Made by a program: the position numbers and the translations under genes
Virus record (IMG/VR): IMGVR_UViG_3300029517_000070
Location: 1-10,001 of that record
Reading direction: 5' to 3' (one strand)
Origin: a virus
Taxonomy: Duplodnaviria > Heunggongvirae > Uroviricota > Caudoviricetes
DNA: 10,001 nt
The notes under the pieces: model-generated
Seen by the model: only the letters and a program-made list of their open reading frames with translations
What the model was told of the DNA's origin: nothing
The model's database searches: none
Shown: positions 3-10,001 of the stretch, piece by piece
Position numbering within the stretch: position 1 is the stretch's first letter
How the letters are laid out: every line of letters starts with the position of its first letter

Positions 3-77
3 GTCCTCTTAGTTAAATGGATATAACGAGCCCCTCCTAAGGGCTAATTGCAGGTTCGATTCCTGCAGGGGACACCA
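3..77 (+). tRNA. argW: tRNA-Arg, anticodon CCT (reads AGG), complete 75-nt gene ending in CCA
   Basis: Cloverleaf can be folded by eye: acceptor stem GTCCTCT (3-9) pairs with AGGGGAC (66-72), discriminator A, CCA at 75-77; anticodon loop CTCCTAA gives anticodon CCT; T-loop GGTTCGATTCC present. Matches the E. coli argW sequence as I remember it. Confidence 0.9.
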
Positions 78-1482: not shown

Positions 1483-3318
1483 ATGTCTTCTAAATTTAGG
1501 AATGATATTAATGGGCTAAGGGCTCTAGCGGTCGCAGCTGTTATTATATATCACTTTAATAGCTCTTATATGTCAAGCGGATTTGCAGGAGTGGATGTTT
1601 TTTTTGTTATCTCTGGATACCTGATGACATCCATAATAGTTAATAAATTCAATGATGGTAATTTCAAGCTTTTTGATTTCTACCTATCAAGAGCAAAAAG
1701 AATCATACCATCATTAATAATAGTCTGCTTTGCTCTGTTGATTTTTGGTTTTTTATTAATAGAACCTGGTACTTATCAGCTAATAGGCAAGCATTCGGCA
1801 AGCTCTCTTACATTCATATCAAACTTTACCTATCTATTTGAATCTGGATATTTCGACCAATCATCCAAAGAAAAGTTTTTGCTGCACACTTGGTCACTAT
1901 CTGTTGAGTGGCAGTTCTACTTGATTTATCCATTTATAATAATATCAATTTCTAAGCTGTTTGGCATAACAAGGCTGCGAGCGGCGCTAGCGTCTCTATC
2001 GGTGATTGGATTTATAATTTCTTTAATTATATCAAAAGAAGATATATCTTTATCTTACTATATGTTTTTTAGTAGAGCATGGGAGATGATAGTAGGTGGA
2101 GTTATTTTCTTGCTTCCATCAATAATGACGCAGACAAAGAGACTGACTTTAGAAATAATAGGGTGCATTGGTATAATATTATCATTTTTTGTTTTTACTG
2201 AACAAACGTTATGGCCGGGGACTCCAACTCTAATGCCTGTAATGTTCACTGCATTGGTTATATATGCTAATAATGAAAAATCAATTCTATCTGCAAGGCC
2301 AATTCAATTAATCGGTAAGATATCATATTCTATATACTTGGTGCATTGGGTAATATTAGTATCATTAAAAAAACTGTATATAGACTTTGGGTTTGCTGCA
2401 TACCTGATATCAACATTAATGCTATCTTTTGCATTATATCACTTTGTTGAAAAAAGGCGTAGCTTTGGGAAAATATGGGTTTATTTGTATGTTTTATGTT
2501 TTCTCATTTCGCTGGCCGTCTCCTTGAATGGAGTCAGATCGCGAACAAGTGGGTCAGATGATTACAGAATGAGCCTTCAGGAGTTCAGAGACAAGTACGA
2601 AGGAAGTGATGGAGTAAAGGATAGCCTCAAACCTATCTTCTTCAACTCTAACGAAGATGACTTTGAATATATATTAATTGGAAGTAGCCATGCAAAGCAC
2701 TATTACTCATATATAAAATCAAAAGGTTTGAAAGTGGTGTCGCTTGCGCTTGATGGGTGTAACTCAACAAAAAACAGGTATACCAACTACCGTCCGGAAT
2801 CATGCGCCCCTCGCTATGATCAAGTGGTAAAATTCATCAATGGCCATCCTGGCAAAAAGGTAGTTTGGGCTACTTTGTGGACTTGGGTTGGGATCCCTAG
2901 AGATAGCTCCAAAAATAATAATGAGAGTACTCTAGATGTGATAAATGAAGAAGTAACTGCATTTATAGGTGACATTAATAAATCAAATAGTGACATTTAT
3001 CTTATAGGTGACGTTCCGGGCACTAAGAAACTAACATTTGAATGCATGGCTAAAAATTCGCTGCCTTTGAATAGATATTTCAATTTGGGCGGATGCAGTG
3101 ACAAGCAAAAGTATGAGGACGATGGTGTTGATGCAACACTATCATCCATAGCTAGAAAATATGATAACGTTCACTTTATAGGGGCTGCAAACTCCTTGTG
3201 TTCATCAGGTGAATGCATGTTGATATCTGAAGGTAAACCAATTTATACAGATTATGGTCACCTTTCAAAATATGGTGCAAATATAGTCGGAAAGTATATA
3301 TTCAGTAAAGTTAATTAA
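1483..3318 (+). CDS. Integral-membrane acyltransferase (acyltransferase-3 family) fused to a C-terminal SGNH-like domain; probable O-antigen O-acetyltransferase (Oac/OafA-like serotype-conversion moron)
   Basis: 611 aa. N-terminal about 370 aa are very hydrophobic with the AT3-type start (RNDINGLRALAVAAVIIYHF) and multiple predicted TM segments; the C-terminal about 240 aa are soluble. The gene is visibly much more AT-rich than its neighbours, and sits between int and tailspike as oac does in Sf6 and gtrABC do in CPS-53/P22. Confidence 0.85.
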   Translation: MSSKFRNDINGLRALAVAAVIIYHFNSSYMSSGFAGVDVFFVISGYLMTSIIVNKFNDGNFKLFDFYLSRAKRIIPSLIIVCFALLIFGFLLIEPGTYQLIGKHSASSLTFISNFTYLFESGYFDQSSKEKFLLHTWSLSVEWQFYLIYPFIIISISKLFGITRLRAALASLSVIGFIISLIISKEDISLSYYMFFSRAWEMIVGGVIFLLPSIMTQTKRLTLEIIGCIGIILSFFVFTEQTLWPGTPTLMPVMFTALVIYANNEKSILSARPIQLIGKISYSIYLVHWVILVSLKKLYIDFGFAAYLISTLMLSFALYHFVEKRRSFGKIWVYLYVLCFLISLAVSLNGVRSRTSGSDDYRMSLQEFRDKYEGSDGVKDSLKPIFFNSNEDDFEYILIGSSHAKHYYSYIKSKGLKVVSLALDGCNSTKNRYTNYRPESCAPRYDQVVKFINGHPGKKVVWATLWTWVGIPRDSSKNNNESTLDVINEEVTAFIGDINKSNSDIYLIGDVPGTKKLTFECMAKNSLPLNRYFNLGGCSDKQKYEDDGVDATLSSIARKYDNVHFIGAANSLCSSGECMLISEGKPIYTDYGHLSKYGANIVGKYIFSKVN

Positions 3319-3351: not shown

Positions 3352-5182
3352 ACGCGGTTAATCTCCAGCGCTTATCATAGTAATGCATTAATCCTTGTGA
3401 TGTTATTTTCATATGCACGATTGCTTGAGAAAAAGTGGCGGCAGCAAAACTTACCCTAAGAAATGTTTGTGAGCCGTTATTGTATTTAGATGTGGTAATG
3501 CCGGTTAGGTTTTTACTTCCAGCAATCATATTTGACCAAACATTACTTGAAGCTAAAGTGGCTTGATCTTTTGCTGATACGCTTACCAATATAACTCCAC
3601 CGGTCTCACCAGTTCCGCCCAATCCATTCTGATTAATTGGCATAATCTTTAACTCTGCTGCGATAAAAACCCCCCCCGTATATGAAGCTTCTTCACCAAT
3701 CGTTGAAATAAGAATATCAATATTTCTTCCATATGGTACCAAAACCGTCGCATCTTCAGTTAATACCTGAGTGTATGTGGCGTTTTTAGCTTGGTGTTTA
3801 GCGGAAAGAACCACACCATCAGAACCAGTTCGAAAGCCGATTCCAGTATGTTCCCCGTAGTATTTACCGTAATAATTTATTCCTCTGACGTCAAATTCTG
3901 AAATAGCACTTCCGGTTGTGTTTTTTACGAAAATGAACTTATCACCGAAGGTGAAACCTCGGCACTGATATTGATTCGTTGGATCGGCAATGTTTTTAAG
4001 AAAGGAAATTCCCTTATAGGCTTTAACGTACCCACTTTCGAAACGAAAGTTCACAGGACCATTTTGTTCATTTGCTGGTAATTCAACAAAATGAGTAACC
4101 GTGGCTCCGCTAGGGTCCTGAATCCAGCAGGAAATGTTCTCAACGGTTGCAACTGATTGGCCGTCCTCTTCATTGTAATCTGCAAAATCAAGAGCGTGCG
4201 TACCATTTATCCCTTCGATACCCATACCTTTGATAGAAAGAGAGCGGAATCCATAGAACTTATGAGGTAAAGAACAACCATCTGCAGCAATATTATTTGC
4301 GGCAACGTACATTAATGGCCCCGGAGCCTTTACAGGTTCATAGGTTTCTCTATCAATCACAGCCCCCCAAAGATAACCAACACCACATTGCGAAGACCAA
4401 ATTGCAGAGACATCAGTACTTGTTCCCCATATTGCAAATCCGTATGTGCAATCATACATAAAAATATTTTGTATGACGCTGACAAATGGACACGATGGGA
4501 GCGCAAATTTATAATGGTAGAAGTCTATATTAGTTAGCTTCCAGTTCTTTCCGCCACCATACGTGGTGCTAGGACCACTTAGCAAAAGTGGACACCCTGT
4601 ATATTCAGAGTCAGTGTTTCTGAAACCAATATTTTCAATATGTAAATTATGACCCCATGAGGACATGTAAAAACCGCCATTTCCTGACGTATAAATCAAA
4701 CTCTGCCTCGGGTTATCACCCTTAATATTTAAGGTGATGCCTTCCCATCTAAACTGGCTAATGTCAATTTGAGTGTTACCAATATATATAGGCTGGTCTA
4801 TAAAAATAGGAAGTTTAGTTAGATAAGCTTTATTAAGTGCTAATCCATCATTTGTTACACCTGTTAAATCGACGCCACCCATGCTTGGCGCTTTTGGGTA
4901 AGGCGTTCCCTGAATAGTACTTCCATCAATATAAGGAGCATCCATCCACGCACCAAACATACGAGGAGTAACATATCCTTTCCCCTGCAGATCTCGTTTC
5001 CAGCGTTTACCACCCGCAGTGACAATGACCATGCCGTTATCATCTGCAGAAGTCGAATCTGTGAAATCGGCCACAAACAGACCACCACCAGTATCACCTG
5101 ATACTGTCGGCTTCATGCCTGTAGTGTGGAAGTCGACGAAAATCTTTTGCTGATCTCGCTCAGGCTCAATTGTCCTTAACAT
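3350..5182 (-). CDS. Tailspike / receptor-binding depolymerase-like protein (predicted beta-helix), lacking a P22-type N-terminal head-binding domain
   Basis: 610 aa, Gly/Asn/Thr/Ser-rich beta-type sequence with a pectate-lyase-like N-cap (GYVTPRMFGAW). Sits in the gene 9 position after ejection genes and convergent with the O-antigen acyltransferase. No Shine-Dalgarno before the ATG at 5182. No similarity to the conserved P22/Sf6/HK620 tailspike N-terminus as I recall it. Confidence 0.65.
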   Translation of the reverse strand: MLRTIEPERDQQKIFVDFHTTGMKPTVSGDTGGGLFVADFTDSTSADDNGMVIVTAGGKRWKRDLQGKGYVTPRMFGAWMDAPYIDGSTIQGTPYPKAPSMGGVDLTGVTNDGLALNKAYLTKLPIFIDQPIYIGNTQIDISQFRWEGITLNIKGDNPRQSLIYTSGNGGFYMSSWGHNLHIENIGFRNTDSEYTGCPLLLSGPSTTYGGGKNWKLTNIDFYHYKFALPSCPFVSVIQNIFMYDCTYGFAIWGTSTDVSAIWSSQCGVGYLWGAVIDRETYEPVKAPGPLMYVAANNIAADGCSLPHKFYGFRSLSIKGMGIEGINGTHALDFADYNEEDGQSVATVENISCWIQDPSGATVTHFVELPANEQNGPVNFRFESGYVKAYKGISFLKNIADPTNQYQCRGFTFGDKFIFVKNTTGSAISEFDVRGINYYGKYYGEHTGIGFRTGSDGVVLSAKHQAKNATYTQVLTEDATVLVPYGRNIDILISTIGEEASYTGGVFIAAELKIMPINQNGLGGTGETGGVILVSVSAKDQATLASSNVWSNMIAGSKNLTGITTSKYNNGSQTFLRVSFAAATFSQAIVHMKITSQGLMHYYDKRWRLTA

Positions 5183-5210
5183 TGCTATATCAGGGCATGT
5201 CCCGATGTAT

Positions 5211-5462
5211 TTAAGACCGTCTTACCAGACCACGACCAGCCTGTTCTGCAATTTGCCCTGCACTTTGACCACCAGTGAGCCAATCGCCAGCTTGTTGCAT
5301 CAATGATGGTTCTTCACGTGCTGGTTCATTGCTATCCTGGCTGACAGTTTGTTGCTGAACAGACTGTCCAGCAAAATACTCATCAATGGCAGATCCAATA
5401 TCTTCCGTGCTCGTACCATCAGGGAAGGTAAATGTCTTACCGTTTGCAGTTACTTTCATCAT
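5211..5462 (-). CDS. Hypothetical small protein (83 aa) at the position where a gp16-type ejection protein is expected; possibly an N-terminal remnant
   Basis: ORF with GGTGGA Shine-Dalgarno just upstream of tandem ATGs (GTGGAATGATGAAAG); the C-terminal half is low-complexity and Q/A/G/E-rich. Functional assignment is inference. Confidence 0.4.
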
Positions 5463-5572: not shown

Positions 5573-6873
5573 ATACCGCTTAACGGCACTCCCAATGATT
5601 CACCTTTTTTAACATCCAACCCCAATATCTGACCGCCATTACGCGATTGTCCAGGGTTGCCATTCGCGCTCATCCACTCGGCTTTAAACTCATTAAACTG
5701 CGCGTTTCGTCGCTCAAGGTTTGCCATTGCATCAAGCCATCTTGCGACCGTCTCAGGGTTATCCATGTCAGTTGGTGCACCCTGACGAACGATCTCAACG
5801 TCTTTATCCGTTGCGGGGCCGGGAGGTAGGAATTTAAGAACCTGACTGTTAACAAGGGCATTTTGGCGAATGCGCAAATCACGCAATGTCGTATCGCTTC
5901 CGGTAAGTTTTGCGAACATGTTCTGTGCGTTACCGAACAAACCTGTCGTTGGTTTTTCTGCTCTGAACTGTTGAGCAAGCGCACTCATAGAATTGGCTGA
6001 GTTTGATGATGCTGTGGCATTGTTTACAGCCGTCTCGATGCCTTTTTCCATGTTTACTGACAGCTTAGGTGCTTCGCTAATCAACTGCTGAGCCTTTTCC
6101 TGCGCTTGCTGCATCTTAAACCCGAACTCTTGCTGATCCAGAGCCAAGCGTTGTGCTGCGATATTGTGCCCAGTCATTGCTGACTGATAGGAAAGGTTTT
6201 GCCCTCTCGCCTGAAGTGCTTCACCAGCCTGATTGCTGCGGATTGTCTCTGCCAGCCTGCCTCGGTCAATTTCACGACCAGCCATCTTATCCTGAACAGC
6301 AAACGCCTTTTCTGGCCCAAGCGCACCGAGAGACATAGTAGTCAGCATGTGTGATAGCTGCTCTGGATTCTGGATACCTGTCTGAATCATCCAGTCAGCA
6401 TTAGCACCAACGCGATTTAACCTGTCCTTGTTGTCAGTAATGAATTTACTGTAGGCTTCCGGTCCCTGAGAAAGAGCGACGTTAGCCCTCATGGCTAAAT
6501 CGCCCATATCGTTGCGTTGCTGCTCATTAAGACCGGAAAACGCCTGTTGTGCCTGTGCAACAAACGCTGGATTTTCCTGGGCAAACTTAAATAGTCCCGA
6601 TGGATCACCAGAAGCCCATGCATCAGCGTGAACCTTATTGAACGCACTAATCGCTTTCTGTTGCTGTTCCTGCTTATAAATATCAGCAACTCCAGCCAGA
6701 CCACGTAACGCGGTCAGACCAACGTTATTTGCACCTGAGCGAGCCAGTTCATTGTTTTCGCGGATCAGACCAAGCGTTGCGTTAATGTCGCTTGCCTTTG
6801 GCGCATTCTCGTTTTGCGCACCAATGCCAGCCAGAAAACCACCAGAATTAATACCCTGTTGCCACGTAGCCAT
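5563..6873 (-). CDS. Phage ejection / internal virion protein, P22 gp20-like
   Basis: 436 aa, Ala/Gln-rich and predicted alpha-helical; AAGGGG Shine-Dalgarno 7 nt upstream of the ATG; located directly downstream of the gp7-like gene in the same operon. Assignment by order and composition, recalled not searched. Confidence 0.7.
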
Positions 6874-7578: not shown

Positions 7579-9385
<1,807 letters not shown>

Positions 9386-9434
9386 TCCCCACCTCAATCT
9401 CGATAACCAAAAACAAACTATTTTTCATTTAAAA

Positions 9435-9516
9435 ACAATGGAGTTTGTTTTTCACGCCCCTTTTTACAATATTTCTTGTTTACAACATACAATCTTTCTT
9501 GTAATTTTAAGCCATC
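9435..9516 (+). promoter_or_regulatory. 434-type left operators (OL3 9435-9448, OL2 9466-9479, OL1 9489-9502) and PL promoter (-35 TTTACA 9479-9484, -10 TAATTT 9502-9507, start near ATCAG at about 9514)
   Basis: Three ACAA-N6-TTGT 14-mers seen directly: ACAATGGAGTTTGT, ACAATATTTCTTGT, ACAATCTTTCTTGT. Sequence downstream from CATCAGCAGGACGCACTGACC matches the lambda PL transcript leader as recalled. Confidence 0.75.
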
Positions 9517-9546
9517 AGCAGGACGCACTGACCACCATGAAGGTGA

Positions 9547-9577
9547 GGCTCTTAAAAATTAAGCCCTGAAGAAGGGC
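9547..9577 (+). promoter_or_regulatory. nutL antitermination site: boxA-like GGCTCTTAA followed by boxB hairpin GCCCTGAAGAAGGGC (9563-9577)
   Basis: boxB is identical to lambda nutL boxB as recalled (5-bp stem, GAAGA loop); boxA differs from lambda CGCTCTTA at the first base. Confidence 0.85.
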
Positions 9578-9845
9578 AGCATTCAAAGCAGAAGGCTTTG
9601 GGGTGTGGTGAAGCCAGCTAGTCACTGGCAAGTGCTTACCTACTGTTGAGCGGTGAAGCGCTCCCAACGCTAGCAATAGCGTGGACGAGATGGGGAGCCG
9701 CGGGCGATAAGGCCGCCATAACGCGCACGTTGTCGCATGGAAAAATCGCTGGGGTGCCGGTTATACCCCTCCGAATGAGACTCAACAAGCTGGAGCTAGA
9801 CTACCAGCCACCACACCACCAAAGCTAACTGACAGGAGAATCCAG

Positions 9846-9956
9846 ATGGATGCACAAGCACGCCGCCGCGAACGTCGCGCAGAGAAACAGGCTCAATGGA
9901 AAGCAGCAAATCCCCTGTTGGTTGGGGTATCCAGCGACGATTTTAGCGCCCAATAA
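9846..9956 (+). pseudogene. N: N antiterminator remnant: 36-codon ORF retaining the arginine-rich boxB-binding motif but lacking the NusA- and RNAP-binding regions
   Basis: AGGAG Shine-Dalgarno 7 nt upstream; MDAQARRRERRAEKQAQWKAANPLLVGVS is near-identical to lambda N residues 1-29 (107 aa in lambda), then diverges to SDDFSAQ-stop at about 9930. Confidence 0.7.
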
Positions 9957-10001
9957 ACACGTTTCCCCTCGTGCGTTAATTCCACTTTGCGATGGGAACG
10001 A

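Follow-up and report, generated by a model that had tools for sequence, protein, structure and literature searches.

A lambda-type N gene cut back to its arginine-rich motif by deletion into host dsdC, most probably an inert relic of a decayed Sf6-like prophage

Near the right end of the window, as we call the whole stretch of 10,001 nucleotides that was analysed, lies a short chimeric reading frame, N', in which the 5' end of a lambda-type antitermination gene N is joined to antisense DNA of the Escherichia coli gene dsdC. We conclude, with a probability of roughly 86%, that N' is an inert relic, a pseudogene of lambda-type N without a role in the decayed prophage that carries it. N' is an ordinary pseudogene and not a new regulator, and the class to which it belongs, truncated N in a defective lambdoid prophage, is already known.

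The N' reading frame and its product

The frame begins with ATG, ends with TAA and encodes the peptide MDAQARRRERRAEKQAQWKAANPLLVGVSSDDFSAQ. Its stop codon (9954-9956) falls inside the window, so that the shortness of the frame is not an effect of the window end, as the first-pass annotation had stated. The features of the N' region are the following:

9834-9838, + strand: Shine-Dalgarno sequence AGGAG, 7 nt 5' of the ATG
9846..9956, + strand: N', chimeric reading frame of 36 codons, made of 28 N codons, a junction Ser codon, 7 antisense dsdC codons and TAA
9846..9929, + strand: N-derived part, codons 1-28, encoding the arginine-rich boxB-binding motif (ARM), 99.6% identical to N of Sf6/HK446
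9925..9929: GGGTA, 5-bp microhomology at the junction, common to the N and dsdC parents
9925..10001, - strand: dsdC', 5' part of the gene for a host LysR regulator, of which only codons 1-88 are left; continues beyond the window

The Pfam family N36 (PF11438) matches residues 2-30 of N' with 74 bits (E=6.5e-21; the Pfam cut-off is 25 bits). When N' was aligned to lambda N (PDB 1QFQ, 5LM7, 6GOV), a comparison that the first-pass annotation had proposed, 28 of residues 1-29 were identical and T5A was the sole difference. The ARM proper (residues 1-22) is complete and is a natural allele, and one full-length homologue, P0011, agrees with N' at every position across residues 1-29. The substitution at residue 5 had been pointed out before and is indeed present, but it is not noteworthy: among 116 N homologues, nearly all of them full-length, 58 have Ala at this position, 32 Thr, 19 Ser, 4 Asp and 3 Glu. 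We therefore ruled out T5A as a mark of decay, Ala5 being the commonest allele in full-length N.

Beyond the motif, N' differs from lambda-type N (lambda N, Sf6 gp37, 434 N), which has 107-110 residues and shares with N' the N-terminal 29 residues, the upstream arrangement of PL, OL, nutL, leader and Shine-Dalgarno sequence and the position after cI and hex. The central region of N (residues 34-47) is needed for NusA and the C-terminus (73-107) for RNA polymerase (PMC3526286); the structures 5LM7 and 6GOV were used alongside to place these regions. Neither is present in N', which departs from N after residue 29 and ends at residue 36, and tblastn with Sf6 N as query gave no match to residues 30-110 in the 20 kb around the locus (10 kb on each side). 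The earlier claim that both interaction regions are missing thus holds. N' has two of the four features that define a functional N, the ARM and a cognate nutL, and is without the NusA- and RNA polymerase-binding regions. Its tail beyond the N-derived part consists of seven residues (SDDFSAQ) that come from antisense dsdC. The best 120 N homologues are 95-162 aa long with a mode of 107-108, and none of them shares the C-terminus of N'; a natural full-length N with this ending, which the first-pass annotation had named as a refutation, is thus not among them. The product has already been deposited as an E. coli 'hypothetical protein' (HAW3053519.1), and in the two closest complete genomes the NCBI pipeline labels the equivalents 'antitermination protein N, incomplete'.

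The N36 and N(1-22) peptides used in structural work on boxB and in RNA tethering (PDB 1QFQ) are essentially the same boxB-binding segment. By this likeness, N' would be expected to bind RNA in vitro. The peptides are laboratory constructs, whereas N' arose by natural deletion and corresponds to them only over residues 1-29.

The deletion junction and the prophage remnant

In all 53 phage records the homology to N ends at 9929, after GGGGTA, and the N match stops at the same position in E. coli among the matches listed of more than 3,000 records. The stretch 9925-10001 is antisense to host dsdC and 100% identical to E. coli K-12. Since dsdC antisense starts at 9925 and N homology runs to 9929, five bases (GGGTA) are shared. 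The parental sequences are ...TGGTTGGGGTA in N and ...TGGTTCAGGGTA in dsdC, and TGGTT also occurs just upstream of GGGTA in both. At the junction, codon 28 of N meets codon 88 of dsdC, a gene convergent with it; antisense dsdC supplies the final seven codons of N' together with its stop, and in the opposite direction the dsdC' frame continues from 88 DsdC residues into 10 codons of antisense N'. The junction was made by a deletion with 5 bp of microhomology (GGGTA), which took away residues 30-110 of N, 223 codons of dsdC, xis, attR and the PL operon in its entirety.

The abruptness of the break is all that could be cited for an assembly or sequencing artefact, or for an IS insertion in place of a deletion. 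Five independent assemblies share the N-dsdC junction, no transposase or IS end is present, and in the 99.94% identical contig L004 (GCA_016682175.1) dsdC' (10048-10350 of that contig), dsdX, dsdA, emrYK and evgAS directly follow as contiguous chromosomal DNA. Artefact and IS insertion were therefore ruled out, their probability being close to nil. The truncated dsdC' retains the HTH domain only, the effector-binding domain of DsdC having been lost, and dsdXA is intact downstream. Inducible D-serine catabolism has probably been lost through this truncation. The first-pass annotation had the structure of N' right and missed its origin by deletion, the antisense dsdC tail and the prophage context of about 10 kb.

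From its sequence, we assign the element between argW and dsdC to the decayed Sf6/P22-like (Lederbergvirus) prophages at the argW-dsdC site of E. coli. It measures about 9.85 kb, compared with 39 kb for Sf6, and begins with the following genes:

3..77, + strand: argW, tRNA-Arg(CCU), with attL; the core CTGCAGGGGACACCA at 63 is identical to the Sf6 attP core
1483-3318, + strand: intact acyltransferase of 611 aa (Acyl_transf_3 and SGNH domains; PHROG 'O-antigen acetylase')

A P4-type integrase gene (intS-like) follows argW. The acyltransferase gene adjoins intS, and in other strains gtr genes or a gene for a 354-aa acyltransferase take the same position. As the likely cargo for lysogenic conversion, the acyltransferase would explain why the remnant persists in the genome. 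On the strand opposite to it, the tailspike gene is without the first ~135 N-terminal profile positions and a gp16-type ejection protein keeps its first ~80 residues; after this gp16 remnant come homologues of gp20 and gp7 and a gp14 homologue that lacks ~25 residues, and then, in this order, 434-type cro, cI, hex and PL-nutL-N'. Four structural genes are truncated in all. The late genes are 90-93% identical to those of phages N7 and HK620, and positions 8034-9929 are 99.3% identical to Sf6.

The locus holds one att core, where K-12 has two, and since this is the core in argW, attR is gone. The region from nutR through gp4/gp10/gp26 has been deleted, and xis and the replication, lysis, terminase, portal and coat/head genes are absent from the 9.85 kb. 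With argW/attL and intS in place, no second att core and essential genes missing, the element is a defective prophage, locked and decayed. At least two internal deletions accompany the N-dsdC deletion: a second one removed the DNA between the cro stop codon and the gp14 homologue, where 64 nt of filler that could not be placed now lie (7970-8033), and a third one runs from gp16 codon ~80 into the tailspike gene (junction about 5182-5222), with removal of the head-binding domain. At about position 5591 the window has a 1-base deletion relative to L004, which shortens the gp20-type ejection ORF from 471 to 436 aa; this shortening is decay continuing within the lineage.

The cryptic prophage CPS-53/KplE1 of K-12 and the phage Kapi1 occupy the same argW-dsdC site with the order argW, attL, intS, O-antigen modification genes and, at the other end, xis, attR and dsdC. 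The published orientation of Kapi1, with int adjoining argW and with xis and attR adjoining dsdC, matches that of the element studied here (PMC8787464). CPS-53 is likewise a decayed P22-like remnant. However, K-12 retains attR, torI (xis) and an intact dsdC, all three of which are deleted in the window's element, and the latter differs further by its 434/Sf6-type immunity region. Further truncated N genes are known from E. coli genomes, and examples such as a fragment beside an integrase gene in O157:H7 and the 52-aa N'-lar' of 730V1 and KTE233, are of the same kind, in that a deletion left the 5' end of N and the remainder is annotated as incomplete N; the right-hand partner and the tail differ.

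Expression signals, immunity and possible functions of N'

Positions 9386-9857 have 0 differences from phage Sf6. This bears out the first-pass statement that PL, OL1-3, boxA/boxB and a strong Shine-Dalgarno sequence are intact, and together with the Pfam match and the alignment to the N structures it upholds the description of N' as an N gene cut to its ARM behind an intact PL-nutL. The immunity region and the signals upstream of N' comprise:

8024..8248, - strand: cro of the 434 type, its stop replaced by a deletion junction, with 3 additional residues
8249-8351: OR/PR/PRM, 1 base off 434
8352..8984, + strand: cI, intact 434-type repressor, 208/210 identical to phage 434 cI
8981..9385, + strand: hex, 132/134 identical to phage 434 Hex
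9435-9448, + strand: OL3, identical to the curated 434 record
9466-9479, + strand: OL2, 1 base off 434, within the 6-base spacer
9489-9502, + strand: OL1, 1 base off 434, within the 6-base spacer
9501-9506, + strand: -10 element of PL, mapped on the curated 434 record
9514, + strand: PL transcript start (+1), mapped on the curated 434 record
9514..9845, + strand: PL leader RNA of the Sf6 type, 332 nt, including nutL
9547-9578, + strand: nutL, identical to Sf6 and 434
9547-9555, + strand: boxA, GGCTCTTAA, part of nutL
9563-9577, + strand: boxB hairpin, GCCCTGAAGAAGGGC, predicted in the fold, with the stem-loop at 9562-9578

The ACAA/TTGT half-sites of OL1 and OL2 are intact by comparison with 434. 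The PL leader is of the Sf6 type and not of the lambda type: a long closing helix (GGCUUUGGGGUGUGGUG / CACCACACCACCAAAGC) is kept around a different interior, and the predicted fold is better than 100 of 100 shuffles (z=-3.6). Between nutL and the Shine-Dalgarno sequence of N (9600-9810), an unrelated segment of ~200 nt, common to Sf6, HK446, HK633 and Sf101, replaces the lambda/434 version, with conservation of the long helix that flanks it; a 60-codon ORF without family match (9646-9828) lies inside this interior. In the region 7900-10001 no Rfam family was found at E<=1. Around N', a simple scan, which also misses the annotated PL itself, detected no other promoter-like site, and it detected no sigma-70-like promoter between PL and the N' frame. 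A scan for terminators on the + strand found none near N', and no intrinsic terminator was found on this strand between N' and dsdX.

Hex inhibits the RecA-stimulated cleavage of the 434 repressor (PMC3564112). Because the intact 434-type repressor, Hex and OR/PRM all remain, PL should be off. The N-terminus of Hex has a signal-peptide-like stretch, and an ORF listed at 8909-9385, which overlaps cI, is probably an over-extension of hex. The Sf6 GenBank record lacks one base of the repressor gene (window 8741; ~2343 in the Sf6 record, L001) that is present in the window and in 434; no repressor CDS is annotated there, and the cI of the window is the intact form.

On the reading that we prefer, N' as an inert relic, the 434-type repressor, stabilised by Hex, would keep PL shut and the peptide would normally not be made. 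Given the perfect preservation of PL, OL, nutL, leader and Shine-Dalgarno sequence, N' could be expressed after loss of the repressor. In this event translation would yield a short, probably unstable peptide, able to attach to boxB and unable to recruit either NusA or RNA polymerase. Antitermination would not follow, and the transcript would most likely be ended by Rho in the untranslated antisense dsdC RNA. We infer the silence and the lack of function of N' because the ARM, NusA and RNA polymerase regions are known for N.

The first-pass annotation had raised the possibility that the peptide acts as a dominant-negative competitor against superinfecting phages of the lambda family, that is, as a boxB decoy blocking the antitermination of superinfecting or co-resident phages with lambda-type N. 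The complete ARM, with its 1QFQ boxB-binding part, and the intact PL, nutL and Shine-Dalgarno sequence fit such a role, and the only known natural model for it is Nun of HK022, which has an ARM that competes with N for lambda boxB and can exclude lambda (PMC4124055). N' would then resemble Nun-like exclusion without an arrest domain. Nun, however, requires its C-terminal RNA polymerase-arresting domain, which is absent from N'. Nun is expressed in the lysogen. N', by contrast, is placed downstream of OL/PL in an element that has Hex and an intact repressor, and should be silent at superinfection, and the promoter scan, insensitive as it was to PL, offered no repressor-independent start. The tail is an accident of antisense dsdC that varies among related alleles, some carriers of the parent scar are without PL and nutL, and the allele is rare (four other contigs and 0 of 5,426 complete E. 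coli genomes). Nothing relevant on a dominant-negative N fragment came up in a search of the literature. Hence we find the competitor role unsupported and very improbable, also in the variant in which the peptide acts after SOS induction.

A residual activity against Rho was also considered. Even when its RNA polymerase-binding domain is missing, N can overcome a Rho terminator close to nut (PMC3526286), and binding to boxB alone is thus not necessarily free of effect. N' might by analogy keep a partial anti-Rho activity near nutL through occlusion of the RNA, with PL transcripts reading through dsdC' in antisense and on toward dsdXA after SOS, and the lack of an intrinsic + strand terminator between N' and dsdX would allow this. 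Yet the activity was shown for N that retains the NusA-binding region, which is missing in N', the effect is confined to terminators next to nut, dsdX is ~1 kb away, and PL is repressed. We consider this proposal even less probable than the decoy.

Relatives of the allele and recurrence of breaks at GGTA

The exact 36-aa product was called on four further assemblies, all independent, of which one is an NCBI genome, two are Logan runs and one is an ENA metagenome, and it is absent from the 5,426 complete E. coli genomes. Neither the junction of the window nor any other junction with N28 on the left was found in GTDB species representatives or in JGI metagenomes (0 in each), and we therefore regard these scars as rare markers of lineages within E. 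coli. The 52-aa N' of KTE233 and 730V1, with 106 index blocks listed, is a related and commoner form at this locus; it has the same 28 N codons and a different tail. Some carriers of the 52-aa scar are without repressor, PL and nutL and keep only the equivalent of window positions 9762-9929. Four related right ends exist at argW-dsdC and are listed here, with a slash for the junction and codon numbers for the break points:

N28/lar' plus lar'/dsdC129: 730V1, KTE233 and many drafts
N83/dsdC129: Logan contig L020, a prophage with imm434-hex
N28/dsdC129: JSMCR1
N28/dsdC88: this window

Judged by sequence, the form in the window can be derived from that of JSMCR1 by a deletion between two copies of GGGTA that are 129 bases apart. 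The window's allele is derived from the commoner, different-tailed scar and is the rarer, deeper deletion. In L013-L018 the scar N28/lar'/dsdC129 is constant and the prophage DNA to its left varies widely between strains, with two immunity types, presence or absence of replication genes, or late genes that abut the N' leader. Such variation suggests that the prophage DNA was eroded repeatedly, or was replaced when incoming phages recombined with it. The population data (a rare allele, a variable tail and loss of PL/nutL in relatives) argue against selection on N', and it is plausibly the O-antigen acyltransferase and the 434 immunity, not N', that have kept the remnant.

Three other short N' ORFs from E. 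coli assemblies (P0122, P0129, P0131) break after ...SAKPV, at the HpaI site (GTT/AAC) of N. This HpaI site is the cloning site of PL vectors of the pKC30 type, so that the three ORFs may stem from engineered DNA carried by the strains that were sequenced.

GGTA occurs just twice in Sf6-type N, at nt 81 and nt 245 (codons 27/28 and 82/83), and seven of the ten types of N deletion junction that were read at base level lie on these sites:

N28/lar
N28/dsdC129
N28/dsdC88 (window)
N28/exo
gp10/N28
N83/dsdC129
N83/abc2

The coordinates are 9922-9929 in the window, 6226-6236 in L002, 6225-6235 and 6462-6472 in L003, 4060-4075 in L010, 1818-1830 in L012, and N nt 245-249 in L020 and L021. All partner sites that could be read end in G(G)NTA, as do both parents of the lar'/dsdC junction, and the dsdC codon-129 site has been re-used with three different left partners. 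N28/exo is from a metagenome contig, and gp10/N28 is from a Logan contig in which the ARM is the part that was lost.

The truncation might on these grounds be one outcome of a recurrent, sequence-preferring deletion at the two GGTA of N with joining to G(G)NTA, a proposal that concerns the origin of N' and not its function. N28/exo, gp10/N28 and N83/abc2 speak for it in that they cannot derive from scars at the dsdC locus. The sample of junctions, on the other hand, is small and was found by browsing rather than by census, and the four dsdC-locus junctions may be serial events that re-used an old scar. Breaks at N codons 75 and 78 are not on GGTA, and partial N matches in complete genomes end at ~nt 54, 61 (O157:H7), 66 and 95, where there is no GGTA, although these are ends of alignments and not junctions read at base level. 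Within the window, the internal junctions at about 7969/8034 and about 5215 show no clear GGNTA. In the sequence analysed, the motif (GGTA/GGNTA) occurs at 3.5 per kb. We know of no enzyme with a specificity for GGTA deletion, and nothing relevant on a hot spot of deletion at GGTA came up in the literature. Integrase action at pseudo-att sites was rejected: the likeness to the att core CTGCAGGGGACACCAT that had been seen by eye was not above background in an ungapped match test (P>=0.1 for most sites, ~0.02 for N83 only), and most junction partners are without arm sites. A sequence-preferring deletion process is thus a tentative and rather unlikely explanation, and we note the regularity as unexplained because the sample was browsed and the dsdC-locus events are possibly serial. 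If real, such a process would repeatedly disarm lambdoid prophages by cutting N behind its RNA-binding motif, and the preference for GGTA would point to a specific route by which E. coli domesticates them.

As an inert relic, N' itself matters little; it is a well-preserved case of prophage decay in which the deletion also destroyed the host D-serine regulator DsdC. It gives reason for caution in that a short ORF may be preceded by promoter, operator, nut site and ribosome-binding site, all intact, for no other reason than that the deletion is recent, as the 0 differences from Sf6 over 470 upstream bases illustrate here. For the host, N' may be of less consequence than the truncation of dsdC, whose phenotype could be that D-serine catabolism is no longer inducible, or than the acyltransferase and the 434 immunity that were kept.
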